Positions 9,092-55,882 are shown, counted from the stretch's first letter. The stretch is DNA of 64,000 nt from an uncultured bacterium (GCA_949291375.1 CASEVI010000004.1:39495-103494), one strand, 5' to 3'. Notes: generated by a model from the sequence alone, not told the origin. Made by a program: numbers and translations.

Positions 9092-10843
9092 CTAATCTTC
9101 CTCCTTCACAATTTTTATTCCGAGCTCAGCAAGTTGAGCATCATCAACACTTACAGGAGCATTTGTAACTGGGCAAACAGCACTCAAATTTTTAGGGAAA
9201 GCAATAACATCTCTGATATTATTAGTTTCACATAAAACCATTGTTAATCTTTCAAGACCGAAAGCCATTCCTCCATGTGGAGGTGTTCCATATTTAAGCG
9301 ATTCGACAAACCAACCGAATTTTCTTTGAATATCTTCTTCGTTAAATCCTAAAATTTTAAAAATTCTATCTTGAGTTTCTTGATCATAAATTCTTAAGCC
9401 GCCGCCGCCAGCTTCATAACCATTCATAATGATATCGTAAGTATAAGAATAAACATTATATGGCTCAGTTTCTAATTTATCTAAATCTTCATCAACTGGT
9501 CTAGTAAATGGATGGTGACATGGTGTAATTTCACCGGTTTCTTCACTTTTTTCAAAAAGTGGGAAATCAACAACCCATAAAACATCAAATGTATGAGGTT
9601 TGATTAAATGCAATTCTTCAGCTAAATCACTTCTTAAAGCACCAAGACCAAAATTAACATTTCTTAAAACATTTCCTTGAGCGATAAAAATAATATCATT
9701 ATCTTTTAATGCAAATCGTTCAATTAAACCAGCTTTTGTTTTTTCATCAAAAAATTTAACGATTGAACCAACTAATTCATTGTTCTCATATTTTACAACA
9801 AAATAGTTATTAAGTTTGAATTTTTTTGCTAAAAGATTATAAGTATCTTGTTTTTTTCTACTGCATTCTTTAGCAAAATTCTCCACTTTAATACCTTTAA
9901 TATATTTAGCGTTTTTAAATGTTTCAAATTCCGAATTAACAAATAAATCTTTAATATCAGTTAATTTTAAATCAAATCTTGTATCTGGTTTATCACTACC
10001 ATATATATTTGTTGCTTCATCATAAGACATTCTTCTTAAAGGTAATTTAATATCAACATTAATTACTTCTTTAAATACTTTTTGAATAAATCCTTCCATC
10101 AAAGTAAGGAATTGATCTTGTGTTAAAAATGAAGTTTCAATATCTATTTGAGTAAAATCAGGTTGACGATCAGCTCTTAAGTCTTCATCTCTAAAGCAAC
10201 GAGCAACTTGATAATATCTTTCAAAACCAGCAACCATTAACATTTGTTTATAAAGTTGAGGTGATTGAGGGAGAGCATAAAATTGGCCTTTATGAATTCT
10301 ACTAGGAACAAGATAATCTCTAGCTCCTTCAGGAGTTGAAGGTGCAAGATAAGGTGTTTCAACTTCAATAAAACCGTTTTGATCTAAATATTCATGAGCA
10401 ATTTTGACAATTTTTGCTCTAGTAATAAAATTCTTTAATAAATTTGGTCTTCTTAAATCTAAATAACGATATTTTAAACGAATATCTTCTAAAGCATCAG
10501 TTTTTTCAGCAATAATAAATGGAGGTTGTTTTGCTGTATTAACCAAGATAACCTCATTTGCTTCAATTTCAATTTCACCAGTTTTTAAATTTGGATTTGG
10601 AACATCTTTTTTATTTACTACACCAGTGATATTTAAAATATATTCATTACGAATGTCAGGAACATTGATTGAATCAGTTTTAATTAAAACTTGAATAATT
10701 CCACTTCTATCTCTTAAATCAACAAACATTAAACTGCCGAGATTTCTTTTTTTAGAAACCCAACCAACAACAGAAACAGTTTTATTTAAATCATTTAACG
10801 ATAATTCTCCGCAATAATTTGTTCTTTTGATTTCTTTTTCCAT
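9092..10843 (-). CDS. aspS: Aspartyl-tRNA synthetase.
   Basis: Class II motifs FRDEDLRADRQPDFTQID and GGGLRIYDQE are present in the 583-aa protein. It lies downstream of hisS, as in Bacillus. Confidence 0.9.
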   Translation of the reverse strand: MEKEIKRTNYCGELSLNDLNKTVSVVGWVSKKRNLGSLMFVDLRDRSGIIQVLIKTDSINVPDIRNEYILNITGVVNKKDVPNPNLKTGEIEIEANEVILVNTAKQPPFIIAEKTDALEDIRLKYRYLDLRRPNLLKNFITRAKIVKIAHEYLDQNGFIEVETPYLAPSTPEGARDYLVPSRIHKGQFYALPQSPQLYKQMLMVAGFERYYQVARCFRDEDLRADRQPDFTQIDIETSFLTQDQFLTLMEGFIQKVFKEVINVDIKLPLRRMSYDEATNIYGSDKPDTRFDLKLTDIKDLFVNSEFETFKNAKYIKGIKVENFAKECSRKKQDTYNLLAKKFKLNNYFVVKYENNELVGSIVKFFDEKTKAGLIERFALKDNDIIFIAQGNVLRNVNFGLGALRSDLAEELHLIKPHTFDVLWVVDFPLFEKSEETGEITPCHHPFTRPVDEDLDKLETEPYNVYSYTYDIIMNGYEAGGGGLRIYDQETQDRIFKILGFNEEDIQRKFGWFVESLKYGTPPHGGMAFGLERLTMVLCETNNIRDVIAFPKNLSAVCPVTNAPVSVDDAQLAELGIKIVKEED

Positions 10844-42393: not shown

Positions 42394-43182
42394 TTATTTA
42401 TAATTATTATTAACTAATCCAGTACCAATAAATGGAATCTTTCTAAAGTCATCAGGATATTTCCTTATAATATAATCAATATAATTGCCAAAAGCTAACG
42501 CTAAAGAATAATAACCTAAAGGATTTGGATGAAATCCCATAGCAATTTTATTTCTAGCCTCTTCATCATATAGAAAAAGATATTCTGTAAAATCAATCAA
42601 ATAAGTATAAGTAAAAAGTTTGACAACTTTTTTCATCTCTTCTCTAACTTCTCTTACTACTTTTGTTCTTTCTGGAGACAAATTGTCAATCTGGAGTGAT
42701 GTTAAAAAAATTCTCGAATCAGGTTCAATTAATTTTAATTTAGATATTACTTTTCCAAGATAACCAAAATAAGTGTCATTGTTTTTTGAAGAATCTTTTA
42801 TATTTATATCATCAATTGACCCAACCTTTTGATTATATACAAACAAATCATTATTACCTAAAAAAATAATATAGGCTTGTTCTTTTTTCCAAAAATTATT
42901 TTTATCAGCCCAAGTTTCATAAAACTCTTTGAATGTCATTCCACCGCGAGAAAAATTATCATATTTAGTTCCTGTAATTCTTTCAAGAATAGAAGGCCAG
43001 GAATATTCGTACATATCGTGATAAGTTATTTCACCTTTATCATTTGTTGATTCAAACTCACCACTGCTCAAAGAATCACCTATAACACCTATTTTTTTAA
43101 AAATAGAAGCGAATCCACAATTATCTTTAATTATATCAAGTGGTTTTTCTCCTTCTTGAAGTTCAAATATTTTTTTCATCAT
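42394..43182 (-). CDS. Cytoplasmic GDSL/SGNH-family esterase/lipase.
   Basis: GDSL motif VIGDSLSSG near the N-terminus, a GNND block and a C-terminal GFHPN (the DxxH region). There is no signal peptide. The start overlaps the upstream lipoprotein gene stop, which suggests translational coupling. Confidence 0.7.
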   Translation of the reverse strand: MMKKIFELQEGEKPLDIIKDNCGFASIFKKIGVIGDSLSSGEFESTNDKGEITYHDMYEYSWPSILERITGTKYDNFSRGGMTFKEFYETWADKNNFWKKEQAYIIFLGNNDLFVYNQKVGSIDDINIKDSSKNNDTYFGYLGKVISKLKLIEPDSRIFLTSLQIDNLSPERTKVVREVREEMKKVVKLFTYTYLIDFTEYLFLYDEEARNKIAMGFHPNPLGYYSLALAFGNYIDYIIRKYPDDFRKIPFIGTGLVNNNYK

Positions 43183-43901
43183 ATTGATGTCCTCTTATCT
43201 AATTCAATGTTATATTCGATTTTAATAGTATTTAATATTTTATCTTTTGTTTCAATTATTGTGCCATCATAATAATAATCTTTCAACATACCTTCCTTAG
43301 TTACAGTATAATCTGTATTAAAAATAGCGCCTTCATAAGTCATATCATTAATTAGTTGATATCTTAAAAGGCCGTCTTCACTAATAGAAAAATTTATATG
43401 CCATTTTTCAGCACTTATTTTTATTAAATCACCGTAATATAATCCGCCACGGTAATAATCATATGTTTTATCTTTATAAAAAAATGACGTGATAGAATCG
43501 TTAATTTTAGTTTTATCGACAGTTAAATCTTTTCGAACTCCATCAGTGATTTCACAACCATATGTTTTACTTTCGTCAATGTATTTAAGAACTTCTTTTT
43601 CTTTAACATCATCTTCTTGAACCAAGCTTCCTTCATATGTTCTATATAAATATAAATAAGGTAATTTTTCATTACTTCTATCAAATTCAAAATAGCAATA
43701 AGCTTTGCCAATTTCTTCTCCACTAGAGTTATATTCATAATTATAATATTCTAAAGAAGCTGTAAATATATTATCTAAGGCTTTATTAATTGAAAAACCT
43801 TCAATATAATCTCTTATCGGTCCTTCAGGAATCTTAGAATTACATGAACATAGTGTGAAAATTGAAATTAATAATAAAATTTTTAAATATCTCTTTTTCA
43901 T
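43179..43901 (-). CDS. Hypothetical lipoprotein of 240 aa, Tyr-rich.
   Basis: Lipoprotein signal MKKRYLKILLLISIFTLCSC with lipobox LCSC. Confidence 0.6.
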   Translation of the reverse strand: MKKRYLKILLLISIFTLCSCNSKIPEGPIRDYIEGFSINKALDNIFTASLEYYNYEYNSSGEEIGKAYCYFEFDRSNEKLPYLYLYRTYEGSLVQEDDVKEKEVLKYIDESKTYGCEITDGVRKDLTVDKTKINDSITSFFYKDKTYDYYRGGLYYGDLIKISAEKWHINFSISEDGLLRYQLINDMTYEGAIFNTDYTVTKEGMLKDYYYDGTIIETKDKILNTIKIEYNIELDKRTSI

Positions 43902-43902
43902 A

Positions 43903-43941
43903 ATTTTTTTAAAAATAATAAGGTTGGTTTATACCAACCTT
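43903..43941 (-). terminator. Hairpin with a U-tract between the two lipoprotein genes; a terminator or attenuator.
   Basis: A perfect 8-bp stem AAGGTTGG-tttata-CCAACCTT, followed on the minus strand by AUUAUUUUUAAAAAA. It ends only about 2 nt before the downstream gene's start codon. Confidence 0.45.
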
Positions 43942-43963
43942 ATTATAATACAATATTTACAAT

Positions 43964-44524
43964 TTAATTATATGAATAAGTACAATATCCATAAACTGAA
44001 TTTAAATAACTATCTGTTTGAGCATTTACAGATTCAAAGTTTTCTTTTATCAAATAGCCATTCGAATCATAAGTCAAATCTAAATTCCATTTAGCTGTAA
44101 TTTCCATTCCGAATCGTCTTATGATTAATCTTTTATTAATTGAGAATGTTTTAAAAGATAAACCATTTTCACTCGTTGAATAGCAATATACAGTATCAAT
44201 AGAGTCGGTAGTTGTAAATTTAGAAATAATCGAATTATATTGATCTTCTAAATTTTCACTATTTAACTTTAAAGGCAATCCTAAATAAAATGAAGTTTCT
44301 TCTGAATCAAATGTCTTATCTGTTCCGCTAGCAGCATATTCATCCCCAGTTAAGCCCTTACAATTAAATTCTCCTACGTAAGAATAGGTTTTGTAATCAA
44401 TATCTTTAAATGTTGAAGCAATATTTTCTATTTCTTCGTAAGATAAATAACCTTTAGGGGCGCCACATGCTGTCAAAACCATTGCTAATGAGCCCAAGAC
44501 TAACATTTTAAATTTATTTTTCAT
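43964..44524 (-). CDS. Hypothetical lipoprotein of 186 aa.
   Basis: Lipoprotein signal MKNKFKMLVLGSLAMVLTACG with lipobox LTAC. Confidence 0.6.
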   Translation of the reverse strand: MKNKFKMLVLGSLAMVLTACGAPKGYLSYEEIENIASTFKDIDYKTYSYVGEFNCKGLTGDEYAASGTDKTFDSEETSFYLGLPLKLNSENLEDQYNSIISKFTTTDSIDTVYCYSTSENGLSFKTFSINKRLIIRRFGMEITAKWNLDLTYDSNGYLIKENFESVNAQTDSYLNSVYGYCTYSYN

Positions 44525-44547: not shown

Positions 44548-47094
44548 TTAATAAATTCTTAAATTCATTGATTTCTCAGTAATATGTGTATCGATTAAAT
44601 CAAATGATAGGTGAATTTTTGTTCCGACTTGAATTTCTTCATTGTGTAAAACATAGAATTCATGAACACTTCCATCTTCTTCTGTTATATTGCAAATCAC
44701 AAACTTCTGATCTCCATAATTTAAGAAAGACGTGACAGTAGCTTCTATACCTTCATCTGAAACATAAATTTTATCATTAGGAATTTCGACTAAAAAATCT
44801 TTAACGAATACTTTTGTACCGAGACCTTGAATCATTTTATTAGAGATTAATTCTGGTGATTTATATAAATATCCATTAATTTTAAGGAAGAAAATTTGTC
44901 TAGCTTTACTTAAATTATTCTTTTTGTTTTGTTCTAATTTTTGTAATTCATTTTTTCTCTCTTTTTCCAAAACACTAAGGACATTATATTCATCTCTAAG
45001 TTTTTTAACAGCTTCCTTATAATTATTCTTTAGTATCTTCTTTTCTCTTTTATAAGGTGCTTTAATTTCATTTAAAGCAGATTCGTAATTTAAAGTTTCG
45101 CCATCAAGAGCCTTATTTATTAAATTTTCTCTTTCTTTTGGATAATTTTCTTTAAATTCTTCGTGTTCAGATTTTCTCTTATGATAAACATCCTTATCTT
45201 TGTTTGTTTTCAAGAATTTTTTATAAGAATCATATTCTTCTTTTTTAATTCTTTCTTGTTCTTCCTTAACTTTAGCGACAACAGATTTTTTATTAATTTT
45301 ATGTTGTTTTTTAACTTCAATAATATCATGTTTATACTTAGCATCTAATTCTTTTATTTTTTCTTTTGTAGAAATAGTTAATTCTTTAATTTTTGCTTCA
45401 TTAGTTAATTTAATAGCAGATAAGTCTTTAGATGAATTTTCTTCAATTAATTTATCATATTTTAAATTAATTTCATTAAGTCTATCTTTATAATCAGAAT
45501 TAACTTTTTCAATATTAGCATTCAAAATAGGTGTATATTTATTTTTTTCATTGCTATTAGCAGTGACAAAATTAATAAATGTCGCAGAAATTTCATTGAA
45601 TTGTTTTAAAGTAGAAACCAAGACATCGTCTCCATTTTTGATTGTAATTCGAGTAATGTCCACTAAAAGTTTTACATCATCACCAACCTTAATATTTTCA
45701 TTTTTGAGTGTTAGGAATAAAACTCTTTCGTTTAATTTTAGATAAACAACTTTAGTTCCTTCAACATCTTCAATATTTATAACATGTGCTTTTAAGTTTC
45801 CTTTTTCAGAAATAGACAAAGCATCACAAGGTATATAAAGTTGTCCATTTCCATCTTTTGTTTCAACTACTTTTGGCAACTCTAATGAATTTCCATCAAA
45901 CAAAACTGTATGTTCATGAATCGAACAAGAAATAACATTTAGTGAAGGAATACGTGGAACAATAGAAACTTCACTATCATAATCAAAGAAATGAGCTTTT
46001 TTAATATTAACACCAACTTTGACAATGTCTCCAGGTTTTAAACCATTAGAATTTAAAGCTTTAATAATAATTCGGGTTGATGATTCTTTAAACCCATCTC
46101 CATTCATATTAATATCGCCATAAACTAATGTTTCATTTCCTAATTCTTCAAAATGAGAAATTTTAACATTGAATAAATCTTTTGGATTAGAATTGGTAGT
46201 ATCTAAAGTTAAATCTTCACACCTAACACCAAACCAAACCTTATGTTTCCCATCAAAGTAATGAGGTTGAACTTTGATTAAATCATTTGCGTCAACATAT
46301 AATTTATTATCTGAATAATCTAAATCTACTTCAACAGTATCGCCATTTCTTAAAAGTGTTGCTTCAAAAAAATTCATTTGAGGTGTTCCAATAAATCCGG
46401 CAACAAATTTATTTTGAGGGTAATTATAAAGATTTTTTGGTGAATCTATTTGTTGAATTTCGCCTAATTTCATAACAACTACCCTGGTACCAAGTGTCAT
46501 AGCTTCAACTTGATCATGAGTAACATAAATAAATGTAGTTTTTAAATCTTGATGAAGTTTAGCAATTTCACTTCTCATTTGAGCTCTTAATTTAGCATCC
46601 AAGTTACTTAAAGGCTCGTCTAAAAGCATTACTTTTGGATTTCTTAAAATAGCTCTTCCTAAAGCAACTCTTTGTCTTTGTCCACCAGACATAGCCCTTG
46701 GCTTTCTATCTAAATAATCAGTTAATCCTAAAATATTTGCTGCCCATAAAACTCTTTCATGAATTTCTTCGGTTGGAACATGTCTTAATTGCAAACCAAA
46801 AGCCATATTTTCGTAAACAGTCATATGTGGATAAAGAGCATAGTTTTGAAAGACCATAGCTATATCTCTATCTTTTGGTTCGACATCGTTAACAATTTTA
46901 TCATCAATATATAATTCGCCAGCACTAATATCTTCAAGTCCAGCAATCATTCTTAAAGTTGTAGATTTTCCACAACCAGATGGGCCGACAAATACAATAA
47001 ATTCTTTGTCTTTAATATCCATTGTGAAATCTGATACGGCTTTAACACCGTTTGGGTAAACTTTATAGATGTGATCTAATTTAATGTTTGCCAT
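44548..47094 (-). CDS. msmK: Sugar ABC transporter ATP-binding protein of the MalK/MsmK family, with an unusual ~480-aa C-terminal extension. The extension holds extra TOBE-like beta domains and a Lys/Glu-rich coiled coil.
   Basis: Walker A GPSGCGKST, Q-loop, signature LSGGQRQR, Walker B MLLDEP and H-loop are present, followed by a MalK-type regulatory domain to about aa 375. The ORF then continues in frame to 848 aa. Confidence 0.8.
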   Translation of the reverse strand: MANIKLDHIYKVYPNGVKAVSDFTMDIKDKEFIVFVGPSGCGKSTTLRMIAGLEDISAGELYIDDKIVNDVEPKDRDIAMVFQNYALYPHMTVYENMAFGLQLRHVPTEEIHERVLWAANILGLTDYLDRKPRAMSGGQRQRVALGRAILRNPKVMLLDEPLSNLDAKLRAQMRSEIAKLHQDLKTTFIYVTHDQVEAMTLGTRVVVMKLGEIQQIDSPKNLYNYPQNKFVAGFIGTPQMNFFEATLLRNGDTVEVDLDYSDNKLYVDANDLIKVQPHYFDGKHKVWFGVRCEDLTLDTTNSNPKDLFNVKISHFEELGNETLVYGDINMNGDGFKESSTRIIIKALNSNGLKPGDIVKVGVNIKKAHFFDYDSEVSIVPRIPSLNVISCSIHEHTVLFDGNSLELPKVVETKDGNGQLYIPCDALSISEKGNLKAHVINIEDVEGTKVVYLKLNERVLFLTLKNENIKVGDDVKLLVDITRITIKNGDDVLVSTLKQFNEISATFINFVTANSNEKNKYTPILNANIEKVNSDYKDRLNEINLKYDKLIEENSSKDLSAIKLTNEAKIKELTISTKEKIKELDAKYKHDIIEVKKQHKINKKSVVAKVKEEQERIKKEEYDSYKKFLKTNKDKDVYHKRKSEHEEFKENYPKERENLINKALDGETLNYESALNEIKAPYKREKKILKNNYKEAVKKLRDEYNVLSVLEKERKNELQKLEQNKKNNLSKARQIFFLKINGYLYKSPELISNKMIQGLGTKVFVKDFLVEIPNDKIYVSDEGIEATVTSFLNYGDQKFVICNITEEDGSVHEFYVLHNEEIQVGTKIHLSFDLIDTHITEKSMNLRIY

Positions 47095-47117
47095 TTTTAA
47101 ATTCCTCCATTAAGTTT

Positions 47118-48728
47118 TTATTTAAATATCGCTATAGAATAAGGTGGTAAAATTATCGAACCATCTTTTAATTCACCGATAAATTTTACATTGTCAACAA
47201 CCAGTTGACCAACAACTTTTTTGTTGTTTATATCGCTCGTCGTAAGAATAATATTATCATTTTCTTTAAAATTTATAGCGATATCAATTTTTTCGTTAAG
47301 ATAATCTTTAGAAATTATCAATAATCCTTTATCTTTATCAGCAGTTAATAAAGATAATTTGCCTCTAGAAATTTCAGGAAATTTATTTCTTAAATAATTT
47401 GCTTTCTTATAATAATTCAAAATAGAATTTTCGTTTTCTAAATTCTCTTTAACAGTTCCATAAGGATAATCAACTGTAGTAACACCGCTTAATTGTACTG
47501 TGTCGTATTTTCCATCTTCTCCCCATTTAACCGATGTTCTAACGTTTTGATCCGGAGGATTATTACCTGACATTCCAACTTCATCTCCGTAATATGTAAA
47601 TGTAGTTCCATTAGTAATTGATAATAAACCAAAATAGAATTTTGTTTTTTCTGGAGAAGTTACTCTAACATATCTAGACATATCATGGTTATCAATGAAT
47701 GGTGCTGGAATCCCTTTATCAGAAGTTTTATTAATTTTTTCTAATCCTTCATAGAATGATTCTACCATCCTACCATCCATATTTGTTGAATTAATATATA
47801 AGCCATCAGGATATGCAGTTGAAGCAGGAAAGTAGAAGAAAGAATCGATGCCTGATTCATAATATCGTTGAATAATTTCAGCAGAACTCCAAGCCTCTCC
47901 AACAATATATGCTTTTGGATTTAAAGATTTTACATAATTATTAATCCATTTTAATGTTTCAATATTCTTTTCTGTATTATTAATAAAATAATACAAAACA
48001 GCATCTAATCTAAATCCATCAACCCCGAGATCAAGATAATATTTCATAATCTTTTCGAAATCTTCTCGAACGTATTCTGAATCTAAATTAAATTCAGGCA
48101 TCTCACTAGAAAAATTACCTTCATAATAAAAATTGTAATAAGGATTTTTATATAAAGTTTTTCCACGAGAATTAGGATCTTCTTTATTCTCAAAAAACGA
48201 ATAATAATCAACGTATCTTTTTTCGTTTTCATTTAACTCTTTATTATTAATAAATTTATTATAAGCATCACTTGCTAATTTAAATTCCTTTGTAAATAAA
48301 GAAGAATGATTAATTACAAGATCTAAAATAACCTTAATATTTTTTTCATGTGCTTTGTTAATAAGATTTTTTAAGTCATCAATATCACCATAAGATTTGT
48401 CGATTTCATAATAGTTTGAAACGTCATACTTGTGATAAGAAGGCGATGTGTTAATTGGCATCAGCCAAATCCCTGAGTATCCTAAATCAGATAAATAATC
48501 TAACTTTTCGGTAACGCCATTCAAATCACCAATCCCATCGCCATTAGAATCAGCGAATGAGCGAACAAAGATTTCATAATAATTTCTATAATTATCATCT
48601 ACGGGAATAACTTCTTCTGCTGTTTCGTCAATTTTATAGCCATATGTCTCATCATAAAATCTTTTTTGACCACATGAAGCAAAAAGTACTGGTAAAACAA
48701 GGAAAATTAATAATCTCTTTTTTATCAT
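47118..48728 (-). CDS. Extracellular GH13 alpha-amylase-family lipoprotein (amylase, pullulanase or maltodextrinase type).
   Basis: Lipobox LFASC. GH13 motifs GVDGFRLDAV, GEAW and FIDNHD are present. The 536-aa length fits. Confidence 0.8.
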   Translation of the reverse strand: MIKKRLLIFLVLPVLFASCGQKRFYDETYGYKIDETAEEVIPVDDNYRNYYEIFVRSFADSNGDGIGDLNGVTEKLDYLSDLGYSGIWLMPINTSPSYHKYDVSNYYEIDKSYGDIDDLKNLINKAHEKNIKVILDLVINHSSLFTKEFKLASDAYNKFINNKELNENEKRYVDYYSFFENKEDPNSRGKTLYKNPYYNFYYEGNFSSEMPEFNLDSEYVREDFEKIMKYYLDLGVDGFRLDAVLYYFINNTEKNIETLKWINNYVKSLNPKAYIVGEAWSSAEIIQRYYESGIDSFFYFPASTAYPDGLYINSTNMDGRMVESFYEGLEKINKTSDKGIPAPFIDNHDMSRYVRVTSPEKTKFYFGLLSITNGTTFTYYGDEVGMSGNNPPDQNVRTSVKWGEDGKYDTVQLSGVTTVDYPYGTVKENLENENSILNYYKKANYLRNKFPEISRGKLSLLTADKDKGLLIISKDYLNEKIDIAINFKENDNIILTTSDINNKKVVGQLVVDNVKFIGELKDGSIILPPYSIAIFK

Positions 48729-48733
48729 TTTTA

Positions 48734-49594
48734 TTAGCCTTTAACAGCTCCTCCTGTTACACCTTCAACATAATATCTTTGTAACCAGAAGAATAAAGCC
48801 ATAATACCTATGGAAACAAAAACACCACCGGCACAAAATTGAGGAAAATATTGAATGTCTCTTCCTTTAGACAACATTTGTTGTAAACCAACAGCAACAT
48901 TAAACAATTCTTGCTTACCTTGCGCAAGATAAGATGCCATCATATAATCTCCCCATGGAGCAGTAAAACTCATCAATATTGTATAAACAACAATAGGTTT
49001 AGATAATGGCAAAATAACTTTCCAGAAAACAGTGTTTTTATTTGCACCATCAATCATTGCAGCTTCATCTAATGAACGTGGTATAGTATCAAAAAAGCCC
49101 TTTGCAACATAATATCCCATTCCTGCGCCAGCACAATAAACAACGACCAAACCATAAATTGTACCTGATAGGCCAATCATTTGAAGCAAGAAATATGTAA
49201 CAATCATTCCTAAAAATGAAGGGAACATACCAATAACAAGAATAAGTTTCATAAAAGCTTGTCTTGCTCTAAATCTTAATCTTGAAAATGCATAAGCAGT
49301 CATTAATGTAATTATTGTCTGAAGAACAGCTGTTATAATCGCGATAATTAAAGTATTTAAATACCATGTACCGAAAGGATATATTTCATCAGTGAATAAA
49401 TTTATATAATTTTTAAATGTCCAAACTTCAGGGACAACATTCAACGGATCATAACTTTCCGAAAAAGATTGTAAGACTAGATAAACAAAAGGAACAAGCC
49501 AAACAATTGAAAGAACAACCAAAATTATATAAACTAAAGTCTTAGATGTTATATCTTTAATTTTCTTACTGTGATAACGTTCTAATTTAGCCAT
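48734..49594 (-). CDS. malG: Maltodextrin ABC transporter permease, MalG-like.
   Basis: Six TM helices and the EAA motif (LDEAAMIDGANKNTVFWKVILPLSKP). Confidence 0.8.
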   Translation of the reverse strand: MAKLERYHSKKIKDITSKTLVYIILVVLSIVWLVPFVYLVLQSFSESYDPLNVVPEVWTFKNYINLFTDEIYPFGTWYLNTLIIAIITAVLQTIITLMTAYAFSRLRFRARQAFMKLILVIGMFPSFLGMIVTYFLLQMIGLSGTIYGLVVVYCAGAGMGYYVAKGFFDTIPRSLDEAAMIDGANKNTVFWKVILPLSKPIVVYTILMSFTAPWGDYMMASYLAQGKQELFNVAVGLQQMLSKGRDIQYFPQFCAGGVFVSIGIMALFFWLQRYYVEGVTGGAVKG

Positions 49595-51135
49595 TATTGG
49601 AAATCCTCCTCGTTTTTTACAGAATTGCTCTTTCCATAGAATATTAAGGAGAAGAAAGCAACAACAACGAACACTACCATACCAATAACTGATGCTGTAC
49701 CGTAATCTTTAAATACTTCACCCATTGACATTTTGTAAAGCCATGTAATTAAAAGGTCAGATTGTCCGGCTCCAAACACTTGCGCAGTAATCATTTCTCC
49801 GTTAACACTTGAGAAAACAGGTCCACCATTAGATAAAAGATAAATAACATTAAAATTATTAATGTTACCAACAAATTGAGAAATCAAATATGGTGTAGTA
49901 ACAAATAACATATATGGTAATGTTATTTTCATATACATTTTATAAGGACTAGCACCATCAATTTTAGCAGATTCATATAAATCATCTGGAATGTTCATTA
50001 AGATGCCAGTACACATTAACATAGTATATGGTATACCAACCCACATATTAACCAAAATAATAGTAATCTTAACTAAAATACCATCACTTAAAAAACGAAT
50101 ATTTTGAGTAATTAAGCCTAATTCTCTAAGCACTGCATTAACAACGCCAGTATCAGTGTTGAGCATTTTTGACATTAAAAGTAAAGAAACAAATTGTGGA
50201 ACAGCAATGGTTGTAATTAGAATTGTTCTCCATAATTTTTTTAATTTAATGCCTTTTTTATTAATCATAATCGCAACAATCATCCCTAAGAAATAATTAG
50301 TAAATGTTGCAAAAAATGCCCAAATTAATGTCCAAATTAAAATTTGAACGAAAACTAAAGCGAATTGAGTTCCGTTTTGTCCACCGGCTACGCCTAATAA
50401 TTGTTGAAAATTACCTAAGCCAACCCAATCAAATAATTCTTTAGGATTCATATGATTTGAATTGTAATTTGTAAAACCGATTAGAACCATAAAAAATAAA
50501 GGAATAATAGTAAAAATTGCAATTCCTAGTGTAGGGATTGAAAGCATCACTTTATGATAATCTTTACCGACTAAACCATTTAAAGTTTCTTTATCAGATT
50601 TGTGCTTACCAATATATTTTAATTGTTGTAATTCATAAGAATCTCTAATACTTGTATACCAAAGAAATGCTAAAATTAAAATAACAATAATGGAAATGAC
50701 AGAATAAAGCAAAATTTTAAAACTATCATCTTGATACATATATCCAATAAATGGAGCTTCATCAGTTTCATATTGAACAGATGAAACATAACCAAATGTT
50801 GGTAGTTTTGTAAAGTTTGGTACACCAATTAAAACTATAAATATAACAGCAACAATTTCATAAAAAAGATTTAATAATCCTCTTAAAATTTGATGACGCG
50901 TAATTTGTCCTATTCCCATAACTAAAAAATTTAATCTAGTTAATAAATCACCATGAGCAAACCAATGGAACAAATTTATAATCGGATTAAAAATTTTTTT
51001 AAAAAATTCTTTTGTTTTTGAAGGAGTTTTTCTTAAAAAATTCCAAATTCCTATTGGGATACTTTTAAAAAAGTCACCAATCTTATAAAAAAATTTTTCA
51101 GGTTTTGTCAATGAATAATATTCTAAATTCGACAT
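49594..51135 (-). CDS. malF: Maltodextrin ABC transporter permease, MalF-like, with an N-terminal extension.
   Basis: EAA motif YESAKIDGASPYKMYMKITLPYM and multiple TM helices. I prefer the ATG at 51135 (MSNLEYY...), which has a GGAGG Shine-Dalgarno sequence 7 nt upstream. The track start is 51165. Confidence 0.75.
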   Translation of the reverse strand: MSNLEYYSLTKPEKFFYKIGDFFKSIPIGIWNFLRKTPSKTKEFFKKIFNPIINLFHWFAHGDLLTRLNFLVMGIGQITRHQILRGLLNLFYEIVAVIFIVLIGVPNFTKLPTFGYVSSVQYETDEAPFIGYMYQDDSFKILLYSVISIIVILILAFLWYTSIRDSYELQQLKYIGKHKSDKETLNGLVGKDYHKVMLSIPTLGIAIFTIIPLFFMVLIGFTNYNSNHMNPKELFDWVGLGNFQQLLGVAGGQNGTQFALVFVQILIWTLIWAFFATFTNYFLGMIVAIMINKKGIKLKKLWRTILITTIAVPQFVSLLLMSKMLNTDTGVVNAVLRELGLITQNIRFLSDGILVKITIILVNMWVGIPYTMLMCTGILMNIPDDLYESAKIDGASPYKMYMKITLPYMLFVTTPYLISQFVGNINNFNVIYLLSNGGPVFSSVNGEMITAQVFGAGQSDLLITWLYKMSMGEVFKDYGTASVIGMVVFVVVAFFSLIFYGKSNSVKNEEDFQ

Positions 51136-51195
51136 AAAAACCTCCAAAACAAACAAACTACACAAAAAGTGTAGTTTGTCGTTGTTTAATAATTA

Positions 51196-52488
51196 TTATG
51201 AGTTAATAACAGTTTCGTTATAAGTATCAACGGCAGCTTGTAAATTATCAAGTGTAATTGTACCTTCTTTCATACCATTGACTAAAACACCTGGAGCATT
51301 CCATACGTTTCCTGGAACAACTGTTTGAACGTGACACCATTCGCTTTGTTCCGTTAATGTTTGGAAGTTTGCATCATTTTTAATTTTATCTAACTCAGCA
51401 ACCTCAGTATTTGATGGACAAATATTGTATTCATCAAATCTCTTTTCTTGTGCTTCTGGTCCAGAAAGATATTGAGCTAATTCGAATGCAGCTGTCATTC
51501 TATCTGTATCGTTAGCACTTCTAATTGGGTTAACGCCATAAAGTTTAGCACCATTAAAGCAACCTAAATGAGCTGTATCTCCGTCAACTGTAACTGTTGG
51601 CATTGGTGCACATGCATAATTATCACCAAGTTGTGCTTTTGCAGCAGCAATATCCCAAGTTCCGTTAACAGCAATTTTAACATTTCCAGTTCCTGCTAAA
51701 ACATATTCATCAACCCATGTACCTTCACTTTGATGTTGAACAATGTTGTAAATAGCTTTAGCAGCTTTTAATCCTGCTTCACCATTAAAGTCAGCAGTAA
51801 TTTTATCAACTTGGTTATCTTCAGTAAATGTTACATTATAGTCTGCACCAAATGTAAACATAGCACCTTGTCCATAGAAACCTTCTTGTAATTTATATGC
51901 AAATTGAGTATTTGTTTCGGCACATTTTGCAAGAATTCCTTCAACAGAAGCAACGTCTTCCTCTGTAAAGACAGATTTATCATACATTAAATAATAGGTA
52001 TTATCTGCAGTATATGGGAATGCATATAAAGTGTCATTGAAAGTAGCACTATCAAGACCGACTTGATTAGTATTTTCTTCAACATAAGTTTTATAAGTAC
52101 TTCTTAATGCAGCTAAAGCACCTTTAGCAACTAAGCCTTGTGTTTTATCAGCACCAAAAGCATAAACATCTGGTCCTGTTGCCCAGTCAGTAATTTCAGA
52201 GTCGACTTTATCTTCTCCGTGAGCAACTTGTTCAATAACATAAGTATTTGGATCGCCGAGTGATTTTCTATATTCTTTGAAATCTTCGATTAATTCGGCA
52301 TCAAATTCAGCTTTATCAGCTGGACCAGAAAGAACAAGGTTAATTGTTTTTCCTTGAGGAGTTTCACCACCTGGGTTATCTGTTCCCCCCCCTGGGTTAT
52401 CTGTGTTTCCTTTGTCACCACAAGCAACTAAGCCTGCGAGTGAAATGCCTAAAACGGCAATAACACCAAATAATTTTGTTTTTTTCAT
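51196..52488 (-). CDS. malE: Maltodextrin-binding lipoprotein (MalE-like substrate-binding protein) with an N-terminal Gly/Pro-rich tandem-repeat linker.
   Basis: Lipobox LVACG. A family-1 sugar-binding fold. The 7-aa repeat TDNPGG(G) occurs twice, encoded by a 21-nt direct repeat plus a G8 run. Confidence 0.75.
   Translation of the reverse strand: MKKTKLFGVIAVLGISLAGLVACGDKGNTDNPGGGTDNPGGETPQGKTINLVLSGPADKAEFDAELIEDFKEYRKSLGDPNTYVIEQVAHGEDKVDSEITDWATGPDVYAFGADKTQGLVAKGALAALRSTYKTYVEENTNQVGLDSATFNDTLYAFPYTADNTYYLMYDKSVFTEEDVASVEGILAKCAETNTQFAYKLQEGFYGQGAMFTFGADYNVTFTEDNQVDKITADFNGEAGLKAAKAIYNIVQHQSEGTWVDEYVLAGTGNVKIAVNGTWDIAAAKAQLGDNYACAPMPTVTVDGDTAHLGCFNGAKLYGVNPIRSANDTDRMTAAFELAQYLSGPEAQEKRFDEYNICPSNTEVAELDKIKNDANFQTLTEQSEWCHVQTVVPGNVWNAPGVLVNGMKEGTITLDNLQAAVDTYNETVINS
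52370..52404. repeat. Tandem 21-nt repeat (cctgggttatctgt...) with an embedded C8/G8 homopolymer at 52385-52392, inside the malE linker region.
   Basis: Seen directly in the sequence. I found no other G/C run of 8 or more in the window by eye. Confidence 0.6.
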
Positions 52489-52586
52489 ATTATTTTTATT
52501 CCTCCTTAAATATGAATGTAAAAATTATTTTTTAAGTAATTTTATATATTATTAACTCTGTTACGAGCTTAATAACCTAAAATAAA

Positions 52587-54101
52587 TTAATCACCTCTTT
52601 GATAATTATCGTTCCATCTTAATAACATAGATGAAACTTCTTCTTTATTTTTTTCAAAGAGTTTTTTACTAATTCTCCAAGACCAATTTGAAGAACCGAG
52701 TGTTGAAGGGAAATTCATTCTTCCTTCTGCTCCAATTGCAAATAAATCTTGAAGAGGTAATATAGCAGCTTTTGTAGATGAAGCAATATTAAGTTCACAA
52801 ACCTTTAATGTTAATTCTTTATTAGATAAATCTTTAACAAAAGGAATTCTGAATCTCTTACATTCATCTTCCAATATTTCTAAAAACATTTTCTTTTCAT
52901 CTTTAGTTAAATCATCGATAAATTGACGACACGTTTTAGAATCATGAGTTCCGCTATATGAGAAGAAATTGTAAGTATAATTTGATGGCCTCCAAATATT
53001 TGTTTTATCTGGATTATCGAAACATTGAGTTACAATTTTCATTCCTGGATAACCACATTTATTAAAGAATTCAATAAAATCATCGTCTATCATTCCTAAA
53101 TCTTCAGCAACAATTGGATAATCTAATTTATCTTTAAATAAATCAAATCCAGGTCCTTTTACCCATCTTCCATTTTTAGCTGTTGTATCTTTAAATGGAA
53201 TTGAGTAATACCCACTAAATCCTCTAAAGTGATCAATTCTTAAATAATCAAAGAACTTTAATGCGTTATTTATTCTTTCATTCCACCATTTATAATTAGT
53301 TTCTTTATGATATTTCCAATTATATAAAGGATTGCCCCATAATTGACCATCAACTGAGAAACAATCTGGTGGACAACCAGCAACATTAACTGGATAGTGG
53401 TTGATATCTAATTCAAATAGTGAAGGATATTTCCGAACTTCTAATGAATCAAATGCAACATAAATTGGCAAATCGCCCATAATTTTTATCTTATTTTTAT
53501 GAGCATATTCTTTTAATGAATTATATTCATTTAAGAATTCATATTGGGTCCAAATATAAAATAGAATATCATCTTTATTATTTTGAATTAATTCTTTTTC
53601 TAATTCTAATGAGTATGTTTTATATTTGTTATCCCATTCATACCATGGTTTTAAATGATTAATATCTTTTAAAACCATGAATATAGCAAAATCTTTAAAT
53701 TGAGGATTGTTTTTAATAAATTCTTTAAACTCAAGACTAGTTTTATCAAATCTATTAAATGCTTTTCTTAATACTTTTAATCTATTATTGAAAAGTATTC
53801 CGTAATCAACTCTTTCTTCATTATTACCCCAATCAATTGAATTTACTTCTTCTTTTGTTAATAACTTTTTATTAATTAATGTATCTAAATCAATAAAATA
53901 ATAATTTAAACCATAATTTGAAGGAGATTGATAAGGTGAATCTCCAAATGAAGTTACATTAAGTGGTAAGATTTGCCAAATATTGCAATTAGATTTTTTT
54001 AAAAAATCAATAAATTCATAAGCTTCCTTCCCTAAACTCCCAATGCCATATTTTGAAGGGAGGGAAGAAATATGTAATAAAATTCCACTTTCTCTTTCTT
54101 T
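52587..54101 (-). CDS. malQ: 4-alpha-glucanotransferase (amylomaltase, GH77), paralog 1. The track start at 54140 would overlap the cre site; I prefer the ATG at 54101.
   Basis: N-terminus ESGILLHISSLPSKYGIGSLGKEAY... is characteristic of GH77. The protein is about 45% identical to the adjacent paralog. Confidence 0.8.
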   Translation of the reverse strand, partial: KERESGILLHISSLPSKYGIGSLGKEAYEFIDFLKKSNCNIWQILPLNVTSFGDSPYQSPSNYGLNYYFIDLDTLINKKLLTKEEVNSIDWGNNEERVDYGILFNNRLKVLRKAFNRFDKTSLEFKEFIKNNPQFKDFAIFMVLKDINHLKPWYEWDNKYKTYSLELEKELIQNNKDDILFYIWTQYEFLNEYNSLKEYAHKNKIKIMGDLPIYVAFDSLEVRKYPSLFELDINHYPVNVAGCPPDCFSVDGQLWGNPLYNWKYHKETNYKWWNERINNALKFFDYLRIDHFRGFSGYYSIPFKDTTAKNGRWVKGPGFDLFKDKLDYPIVAEDLGMIDDDFIEFFNKCGYPGMKIVTQCFDNPDKTNIWRPSNYTYNFFSYSGTHDSKTCRQFIDDLTKDEKKMFLEILEDECKRFRIPFVKDLSNKELTLKVCELNIASSTKAAILPLQDLFAIGAEGRMNFPSTLGSSNWSWRISKKLFEKNKEEVSSMLLRWNDNYQRGD

Positions 54102-54125
54102 CATAAATAAAATTGCTTCTTTGTT

Positions 54126-54139
54126 TGTAAGCGCTTTCA
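54126..54139. promoter_or_regulatory. Perfect cre site TGAAAGCGCTTACA at the start/5' UTR of malQ paralog 1.
   Basis: It matches TGWAANCGNTNWCA at all positions and overlaps the longest-ORF start codon of a maltodextrin gene. This is the classic position for CcpA repression. Confidence 0.6.
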
Positions 54140-54252
54140 TTATAATTTCAAATTTTTCTTGTGTAAAGAGTTAATTTTTCCCTTAATATTCATTAAATTC
54201 ATAAAAATTGTAAATAATTATTAAAATTTAAATATTTTAATATTGAAATTTA

Positions 54253-54289
54253 CATATAATTAAAAAATATTCGATGGTTATCGAATATT
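54253..54289. terminator. Palindrome AATATTCGAT-ggtt-ATCGAATATT between the two malQ genes; a terminator for malQ2 and/or an operator.
   Basis: A perfect 10-bp inverted repeat with a flanking A/T run, 60 nt downstream of the malQ2 stop. Confidence 0.45.
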
Positions 54290-54349
54290 TTACTAATTTT
54301 ATAAATATATAAAAAATTACCTAAATTATCATTACTTTAATTTTAAACC

Positions 54350-55882
54350 TCAATTTTTATTAAAATCAGTGTTTAAACGTCTATATTTCTCATTTAATGA
54401 AAAAATTTTATTTTTTAAGTCATTATTAAATTCAAATGGTAAAAAACGATATGTCCAGTTATCTTCTAAAAGTGTTGATGGACGATTCATTCTAGACTCT
54501 TTACCTTTAAAAAATAAATCTTGAAAGGTAAAAGAAACATGTTCTGCTTTTGAAGCAAAAATAAGTTCAATAAGTTTAAAAGCTATATCATAATTTGAAA
54601 AAGCATCTTCTAAATATGGCACATTTAATTTTTTGCATTCTTCTTTTATTTTATTTAAAAGTTCTTCTTTTTTTACTTCATTAATTTCATCTAATTTTAC
54701 TTTTATAGGAGTATTATCGTGATTTCCTAAATAAAAATATGTATTTTCATCAATTTCAGAGGGCAAAATTCTTCTAATGTCTTCAACATCATCAAAAAGA
54801 GTAGGAATTAAAGTAATATTATAAGGAATATCGCTATCTTTAATAAAATCTCTTATTTTTAAAGAAAAATTACCTAAACCAGAAGCGATTAAATTATTTT
54901 CTTCTTTAATTAAATTGATAAATTCAATTCCTGGTCCATCCATAAATACTCCTTTTTTAGGATTTTTACTTCTAAAAGGAATCGCATAAACTTCTTTAAA
55001 ACCTCTAAAGTGATTAAGTTTAACACGGTCATAAAGACTTGAAGCACGATAAAGTCTTCTTCTCCACCATTTGTAATTATTAAGTCTCATATATTCCCAA
55101 TCATAAAGAGGATAACCCCATTTTTGACCGCGAGAATTAAAATTATCAGCAGGATAACCAGCAACATAGGTAACTAAATTTCTTTTATCAACCATAAAAA
55201 GTTCAGGATTAAAATACATTTCATCACTATCAAATCCTAAAAAATGAGGAATATCACCGATTATTTCAATATTTTTACTTTTTGCATATTCATGTAATTT
55301 ATTCCATTGTTTAATAAAAATGAATTGTAAAAAAAATTGAAATTCAATTTCTTTGCTATGATGCTTTAAATAATGAACCATTACTTCTTCATCGTAATAT
55401 CTATCTTCTAATGAATAATCAAACCAAGCTTTATTATTGTTATTTAATTTTATCGTTTTGAATAAACAATATTTAAAAATTTGACTATCTTTTTTAAATT
55501 CAAGATATTCTTTATTTTCTAAATCAAATCTTTTAAATGCTTTTTTAAAAACAATATCTTTAGCCAAAGTAACTTTTTCAAAATCTACTTTTCTAGGATT
55601 TTTTCCAAAGTTTAAATTTTGTAAATCACGACTATTTACTAAGCCTTTTTCAATTAAATCATCAATATCAATTAATAAAGGATTTAATCCAAAAGCAGTA
55701 ATAACTTGGAAAGGTGAATTAGAAAATCCTACATCTTCTAAAGGTAAAATTTCCCAATATGAAAATCCACATTCTTTAATATAATCAATAAATTTATATG
55801 TTTCTTTACCTAAACCTCCAATACCATATTTTGATGGTAATGAAGTAATATGCATAATTACACCACTTTCTTTTTGTTTCAT
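54350..55882 (-). CDS. malQ: 4-alpha-glucanotransferase (GH77), paralog 2.
   Basis: N-terminus MKQKESGVIMHITSLPSKYGIGGLGKETY. The 510-aa length fits. Confidence 0.8.
   Translation of the reverse strand: MKQKESGVIMHITSLPSKYGIGGLGKETYKFIDYIKECGFSYWEILPLEDVGFSNSPFQVITAFGLNPLLIDIDDLIEKGLVNSRDLQNLNFGKNPRKVDFEKVTLAKDIVFKKAFKRFDLENKEYLEFKKDSQIFKYCLFKTIKLNNNNKAWFDYSLEDRYYDEEVMVHYLKHHSKEIEFQFFLQFIFIKQWNKLHEYAKSKNIEIIGDIPHFLGFDSDEMYFNPELFMVDKRNLVTYVAGYPADNFNSRGQKWGYPLYDWEYMRLNNYKWWRRRLYRASSLYDRVKLNHFRGFKEVYAIPFRSKNPKKGVFMDGPGIEFINLIKEENNLIASGLGNFSLKIRDFIKDSDIPYNITLIPTLFDDVEDIRRILPSEIDENTYFYLGNHDNTPIKVKLDEINEVKKEELLNKIKEECKKLNVPYLEDAFSNYDIAFKLIELIFASKAEHVSFTFQDLFFKGKESRMNRPSTLLEDNWTYRFLPFEFNNDLKNKIFSLNEKYRRLNTDFNKN

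Follow-up and report, generated by a model that had tools for sequence, protein, structure and literature searches.

MalK is the textbook case of an ABC importer with a regulatory C-terminal domain, known for EIIA-Glc-dependent inducer exclusion and for the sequestration of MalT. Which partners this domain of MsmX/MalK has outside the proteobacteria is, to our knowledge, largely unknown. An uncultured, Mollicutes-like gut bacterium encodes such an ATPase in an unusually long form. Its 848 residues exceed by about 470 the length of MsmX, MsmK, MalK and UgpC, which comprise ~360–380 aa and carry one regulatory domain; the surplus is made up of two domains and a hairpin of ~210 residues. Is this extension real, what is it built of, and what might it contribute to sugar import? 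We analysed the gene within a 64,000-nucleotide stretch of DNA, hereafter the window, and compared it with its homologues and their genomic surroundings.

Results

The long-form gene is a single intact reading frame

The gene, a long-form MsmX/MalK-type ABC ATPase, spans positions 44548–47094 of the window. It lies on the minus strand, like all other features described here; the first-pass annotation had given the same coordinates, leaving the strand unstated. A total of 848 codons run uninterrupted to a TAA stop codon at 44548–44550, in agreement with the earlier claim of an in-frame ORF that continues beyond the normal MalK length. A GGAGG ribosome-binding site (47104–47108), read from the sequence and graded strong, lies 9 nt 5′ of the ATG (47094–47092), and both gene neighbours are 23 nt away. 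Because the genome has a GC content of 26% and stop codons are AT-rich, a chance origin of an 848-codon ORF is excluded. The identical 848-aa protein is also present on scaffold_85 of ENA ERZ16268108.

A frameshift or assembly error could in principle have joined a normal MsmX gene of ~375 aa to a separate downstream gene. The unusual length was the sole prior reason to suspect this, and we found no positive support for it. More than 120 clusters, drawn from independent assemblies, contain the same continuous ORF at 49–85% identity and 100% coverage. In 23 of the 24 species loci, the match to the extension begins on the same strand and within a few bases of the end of the N-terminal match (locus position 9994–10000, or the equivalent in shorter loci); the exception, L024, has a partial extension match 1.3 kb downstream. 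Moreover, the linker that joins the first and second regulatory domains, PRIPxxN, is itself conserved. The family-wide conservation of the fusion refutes the artefact reading, to which we assign a negligible probability. The first-pass annotation had likewise considered an annotation artefact unlikely, and had named two separate genes or a frameshift near codon 375 as what would overturn its view; contiguity in 23/24 loci, within the same operon, speaks against both.

A canonical ATPase is followed by two predicted regulatory-type domains

Residues 1–378 form a full member of the MsmX/MsmK/MalK/UgpC group (PDB 6yir, 7x0q, 1g29, 1q12; E 1e-128 to 1e-88), aligning end to end with 7x0q (E 1e-128; residues 1–368) and 6yir (E 3e-118). 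The nucleotide-binding domain (NBD; aa 1–240, 46375–47094; Pfam ABC_tran, E 7.5e-32) shows a family conservation of 0.92 and has intact catalytic motifs: Walker A GPSGCGKST, the Q-loop, the signature MSGGQRQR, Walker B LLDEPLS and the H-loop VTHD. It is followed by the canonical MalK regulatory domain, RD1 (aa 241–378, 45961–46374), in which Pfam recognises OB_MalK at aa 236–295 (29.6 bits, cutoff 27) and TOBE_2 at aa 289–370 (21.8 bits, cutoff 21). The protein passes the NCBIfam model of the UgpC subfamily, NF008653 (459 bits, cutoff 432), and falls below the cutoff of the E. coli MalK equivalog NF008233 (396 bits, cutoff 568); it is therefore a member of the UgpC subfamily and not a MalK orthologue. 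From its sequence, the gene product is predicted to be the subunit that hydrolyses ATP in a maltodextrin ABC importer of the CUT1 type, as expected from its earlier identification as a MalK-type ATPase.

The matches to ABC_tran, OB_MalK and TOBE_2 are confined to aa 21–370. A scan of the 472-residue stretch that contains the extension (aa 377–848) returned no Pfam match at E values up to 1 and no NCBIfam family. A GroES match (E 0.0065, 16 bits against a cutoff of 128) was rejected as spurious small-beta-barrel similarity. AlphaFold2 (AF2) models combined with hhalign and Foldseek comparisons delineate a second MalK-type regulatory domain, RD2 (also X1; aa 379–508, 45571–45960), with 12 predicted beta strands and a pLDDT of about 90–95. 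RD2 starts with the PRIPxxN motif, whose counterpart in the alignment is PxMNF, the junction of NBD and regulatory domain in canonical MalK. The C-terminal domain, RD3 (also X3; aa 732–848, 44551–44901), is a third domain of predicted TOBE/MOP fold. It carries an extra, highly conserved helix, LISNKMIQGLG (aa 748–758), and ends in a conserved tail, ITEKSMxI[RK][IL]Y.

Several comparisons relate the two additional domains to RD1. Profile alignments by hhalign matched RD1 to X1 with a probability of 63% (E 6.9e-5) and to X3 with 74% (E 2.8e-5), against 0.1% for controls. X1 and X3 are also related to each other (BLASTP E 1e-4; hhalign 95.5%, E 1.4e-8). When PDB sequences were searched with profiles of the extra domains, only the C-domains of sugar ABC ATPases were found, the best being 2d62 (E 0.0046) and a further match covering residues 237–342 of 2it1. 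Taken by profile, the similarity to the MalK regulatory domain may be called moderate. At the level of structure, Foldseek aligned RD2 with MalK/MsmX chains over ~125–130 columns and matched the extra domains to the MalK-RD/TOBE/MOP fold at E values of 6.6e-6 and weaker, both queries being predicted models; RD3 was tested alone in a separate structure prediction. Both domains are thus modelled with the MalK-RD/TOBE/MOP fold. Two duplications of the protein's own C-terminal regulatory domain account for the order RD1-RD2-RD3.

These results bear out the proposal of extra TOBE-like domains made in the first-pass annotation, and its layout of beta, helical and beta segments was right; their limits shift slightly, to aa 379–508, 521–731 and 732–848. 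The resemblance that it had noticed between two C-terminal strands, GDIVKVGVNIKKAHFF and VGTKIHLSFDLIDTHI, involves the same stretch in which hhalign pairs the canonical regulatory domain with the last one. We identified no ligand-binding motif in RD2 or RD3.

A predicted helical stalk separates RD2 from RD3

The coiled-coil-type helical region earlier placed between the two extra domains is corroborated by AF2 models, hydrophobic periodicity and covariation, which together describe an antiparallel two-helix hairpin (aa 521–731, 44902–45534). The surrounding segment (aa 501–735) is 42% charged, with 20% K and 14% E. AF2 predicts four helices with a pLDDT of 92.4 (88–97 within secondary structure), arranged as an up arm (aa 521–554 and 558–630) and a down arm (aa 634–703 and 705–731) with a single central three-residue reversal at aa 631–633. 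Each arm comprises ~105 residues and would reach ~15 nm, assuming a rise of 1.5 Å per residue. The family hydrophobicity profile has a period of 3.6–3.8 residues in all four helices, and conserved apolar positions recur about once every 3.67 residues, forming a narrow hydrophobic seam.

To examine how the arms are paired, we calculated mutual information (MI-APC) across the family and performed enrichment tests; mean-field DCA (Neff ~65) was discarded, as an artefactual column clique dominated its output. Among the top between-arm pairs, 17/25 fell at i+j = 495–525, against 27% expected (p 2e-5), with enrichment for helices a1 × a4 (17/20, p 0.003) and a2 × a3 (13/20, p 0.014). Pairs at least 100 residues apart were not significant when taken alone (9/25, p 0.14), and the averaged anti-diagonal signal was weak (z ~1.8) and close to the parallel control. 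Taken together, the between-arm pairs support an antiparallel register of the arms. In the AF2 model, the up arm is broken at aa 555–557 (45424–45432) and, opposite to it, the down arm has a one-residue break at aa 704 (44983–44985). Both breaks fit the register given by the MI pairs and form a joint about one third of the way up. A four-helix bundle in which the chain reverses at these two breaks was considered and rejected: a one-residue break is unable to reverse a helix, and the covariation that a reversal at the joint would leave between a1 and a2 is absent (3/20, p 0.96). We infer the geometry of the stalk, the packing of RD2 against RD3 and their orientation to the membrane from secondary structure and covariation only.

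The tip of the hairpin carries the motif NKDKDVYHKR (aa 631–640, 45175–45204; family consensus N-K-D-[KR]-D-A-Y-R-K-R), with residue frequencies of 0.96 for N631, 0.91 for K632, 0.98 for D633 and 0.92 for R640. Conservation along the stalk rises from 0.40–0.43 at the base to 0.55 at the apex, and all of the highly conserved polar stalk residues (11/11) lie within 60 residues of the apex. The stalk region is nearly free of indels and measures 222–228 aa in each of 67 aligned homologues. This fixed length and the apical rise in conservation suggest that the stalk may be more than a passive spacer. The conserved polar residues near the apex could alternatively act within the molecule, for example through salt bridges that stabilise the turn.

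Relatives lack the stalk or carry an insertion in it

An exhaustive phmmer search and a full-length query recovered at least 120 full-length homologue clusters (49–85% identity, 100% coverage). The fusion and its synteny are conserved in at least 24 GTDB species; this number is a lower bound, as the genome scan used long forms only and was limited by two patterns. The carriers are Anaeroplasmataceae, Acholeplasmatales and uncultured gut Bacilli or Mollicutes. Hence the suggestion that the extension might be typical of a lineage proved correct: it occurs in frame across 24 species and more than 120 clusters.

Shorter relatives of ~620–650 aa align through RD2 and RD3 and lack the stalk, among them ~630-aa proteins from a gut bacterium with 46% GC. 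In these ~630-aa relatives, the strands that flank the stalk (aa ~499–508 and ~735–739) are kept. A word-indexed search with a stalk-less RD2+RD3 profile (A4) matched one protein. Since the short relatives possess both extra domains without the stalk, the stalk is a lineage-specific insertion: one clade of wall-less or reduced gut Bacilli gained the ~210-residue hairpin between RD2 and RD3. In the single short-form locus that we examined (L026; 632 aa), the SBP-MalF-MalG-amylase-ATPase core is the same as in the long-form loci. Another homologue, P0152 (1088 aa, found on two contigs in the same operon), contains an insert of ~240 aa at the up-arm joint, consisting of four predicted transmembrane helices (two copies of DUF6693/DUF898). 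Its sequence hints that the stalk could be membrane-proximal rather than directed into the cytoplasm.

The gene resides in a conserved maltodextrin operon

In the window, the long-form gene sits in the middle of a maltodextrin operon. The genes upstream of it (47118–55882, minus strand) are, in transcription order and as identified by Pfam, two 4-alpha-glucanotransferases (54350–55882 and 52587–54140), a solute-binding lipoprotein (51196–52488), a MalF-like permease (49594–51165), a MalG-like permease (48734–49594) and an alpha-amylase-family lipoprotein (47118–48728). The operon thus supplies the cognate solute-binding protein and both permeases, as in MsmX/MalK systems. Downstream (42394–44524, minus strand) follow two lipoproteins of 186 aa (43964–44524) and 240 aa (43179–43901), neither with a Pfam or NCBIfam match, and a GDSL hydrolase (42394–43182). 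The order SBP_bac_8, two BPD_transp_1 genes, amylase and ATPase is kept in 20/24 species loci, namely those reaching far enough upstream, which agrees with the strong mid-operon context claimed before. Homologues of both lipoproteins directly follow the long-form ATPase in 21/24 loci; in L030, the ATPase is followed by two proteins without a Pfam match (239 and 235 aa) that we liken to them by size only. An enlarged MalG is apparent in many Anaeroplasmataceae loci from gaps of ~500 nt between the MalF and MalG matches, and the called MalG of L030 has 457 aa. No candidate partner gene was found in the conserved operon.

The first-pass annotation had reported that the locus encodes no LacI/MalR-type regulator and had concluded that the extra modules may carry regulatory functions. 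For the 64-kb window the observation stands: neither tblastn nor Pfam on ORFs of at least 120 aa detected a LacI protein. It does not hold for the family, as six long-form loci (L013, L015, L017, L018, L022 and L025) have a gene for a LacI homologue in divergent orientation upstream of the operon. A LacI homologue is also present upstream in the stalk-less short-form locus L026. A family-wide replacement of a missing LacI regulator by the extension is therefore rejected, and with it goes the sole contextual argument for a regulatory take-over; the conclusion drawn from the missing regulator is not supported.

Discussion

We are highly confident of the anatomy described here, in which RD1, RD2, the stalk and RD3 follow one another on a canonical ATPase. 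For its function, a putative regulatory or scaffolding role is plausible. Our preferred explanation as a whole, with a probability of roughly 0.4, is that the stalk/RD module docks a partner and modulates transport. Residues 1–378 would power transport as in MsmX/MalK, forming a dimer under MalF/MalG, and the RD2-RD3 module would hang below RD1. At a distance of ~15 nm, the conserved tip of the stalk would be offered for docking, either to a partner or to the apex of another stalk. By analogy, occupancy of the module would link the activity of the maltodextrin transporter to a partner in the cytoplasm or near the membrane, because every characterised regulatory domain of an importer NBD known to us either gates NBD closure or sequesters a partner. 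This applies, for example, to MalK (EIIA-Glc and MalT), ModC (molybdate) and MetN (methionine). The roles of NBD-attached regulatory domains have been reviewed (PMC4245157). Reasoned from such precedents, the docking or regulatory role of the module stays putative, with odds somewhat short of even. A more specific version is doubtful: the stalk might represent a novel type of accessory device on an ABC importer, a rigid, length-conserved and jointed ruler of ~15 nm that uses its apex N-K-D-[KR]-D-x-Y-x-K-R to dock onto a specific partner or a second stalk and so couples maltodextrin uptake to a distant component in wall-less gut bacteria. If this were true, the distant component would be cytoplasmic or membrane-proximal, for instance an enzyme of metabolism, a regulator or an array of transporters.

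Stalks and extra TOBE domains might instead only hold ATPase dimers together or cluster transporters, apex to apex or side by side, without any separate partner. MalK regulatory domains form a constitutive dimer contact and TOBE/MOP domains typically oligomerise, with ModE, ModG and Mop among the structural matches of the extra domains. A conserved apex and a fixed length would suit a defined tip-to-tip geometry, and an operon without a candidate partner gene would be expected if none were needed. The narrow hydrophobic seam, however, suits a lone two-helix hairpin and not a four-helix bundle formed between two stalks, and the short forms would function without a stalk; we regard pure self-association as rather unlikely.

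Two further readings are each improbable to our minds. The proximal third of the stalk could run back to the membrane and place the joint at its surface, with the basic distal segment lying along the inner leaflet or MalF/MalG, as an anchor or a sensor of lipid or permease state. This would account for the four predicted transmembrane helices of P0152, located exactly at the up-arm joint (their even number leaves both ends of the insert cytoplasmic), for the net positive charge of the down arm in 94% of homologues (median +5), and for the apparent enlargement of MalG in many Anaeroplasmataceae. Yet the insertion is known from a single lineage, and the net charge of the whole stalk varies from −4 to +14. 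Equally unlikely is a small-molecule mechanism, with a metabolite of the cytoplasm (for example maltose, glucose or a sugar phosphate) binding to RD2 and RD3, which would then inhibit the ATPase in the manner of ModC with molybdate; the stalk would be mechanically incidental. ModC, ModE and ModG bind molybdate through domains whose fold the extra domains share, and the RD2 and RD3 pair occurs without the stalk in the short forms. We know of no sugar binding by MalK-type TOBE domains. ModBC and MetNI are established cases of trans-inhibition by domains attached to the NBD (PMC4245157). Against such a mechanism here stands the lack of an identified ligand-binding motif in RD2 and RD3, and it would leave the fixed stalk length and the conserved apex unexplained. 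Docking of a partner by the stalk/RD module remains the reading that we favour.

How does this architecture compare with known systems? Tandem duplication of a domain within one chain is common to ModE, ModG and the long form. Sequence identity to the ModE di-MOP, ModG and ModC TOBE domains (PDB 1h9r/1h9s, 1o7l, 1h9j, 3d31) is only 7–17%, however, and these proteins have no helical hairpin between their repeats; the long form lacks a molybdate-binding context and, by Pfam and NCBIfam scans, any HTH domain. It has no N-terminal winged-helix domain and is therefore not a ModE-type regulator. The C2 domain of MetN, the tandem CBS domains of OpuAA and the fused solute-binding-like domain of CmpC/NrtC (PDB 9u9z; PMC13287603) likewise form a module behind the NBD that modulates ATPase closure (PMC4245157), and CmpC chains were among the PDB matches of the NBD; these modules have other folds, and neither a threefold TOBE domain nor a long stalk of coiled coil occurs among them. 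Long antiparallel two-helix hairpins, set into a beta-domain or standing out as a stalk and in some cases with a functional apex and a joint or elbow, are found in EmrA (4tko) and other membrane-fusion proteins, prefoldin, SMC/Rad50 and the stalks of dynein and Mx proteins, all by analogy and not homology. In SMC/Rad50, the coiled coil interrupts the ABC head, whereas the long-form NBD is contiguous (aa 1–240) and the hairpin lies between TOBE-like domains. Membership of the SMC/Rad50/RecN type was rejected on the same grounds: the NBD is uninterrupted and the hairpin comes after two regulatory domains.

Judged from sequence, the MsmX/MalK-type ATPase core is known, and the combination of a tripled regulatory domain and a stalk appears to be new; in the literature that we searched, no long MsmX/MalK that has additional TOBE domains or a stalk is described, which is not proof of absence. 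Three regulatory domains and a stalk with a conserved tip offer a handle on what interacts with sugar importers in Firmicutes and Mollicutes with reduced genomes. The obvious baits are the apex and the extra domains, and the stalk-less relatives and the relative with the membrane insertion provide natural deletion and insertion controls. The hosts are abundant uncultured starch or maltodextrin users in the animal and human gut. Their homologues bear the label UgpC at NCBI, a name that hides over half of the sequence.

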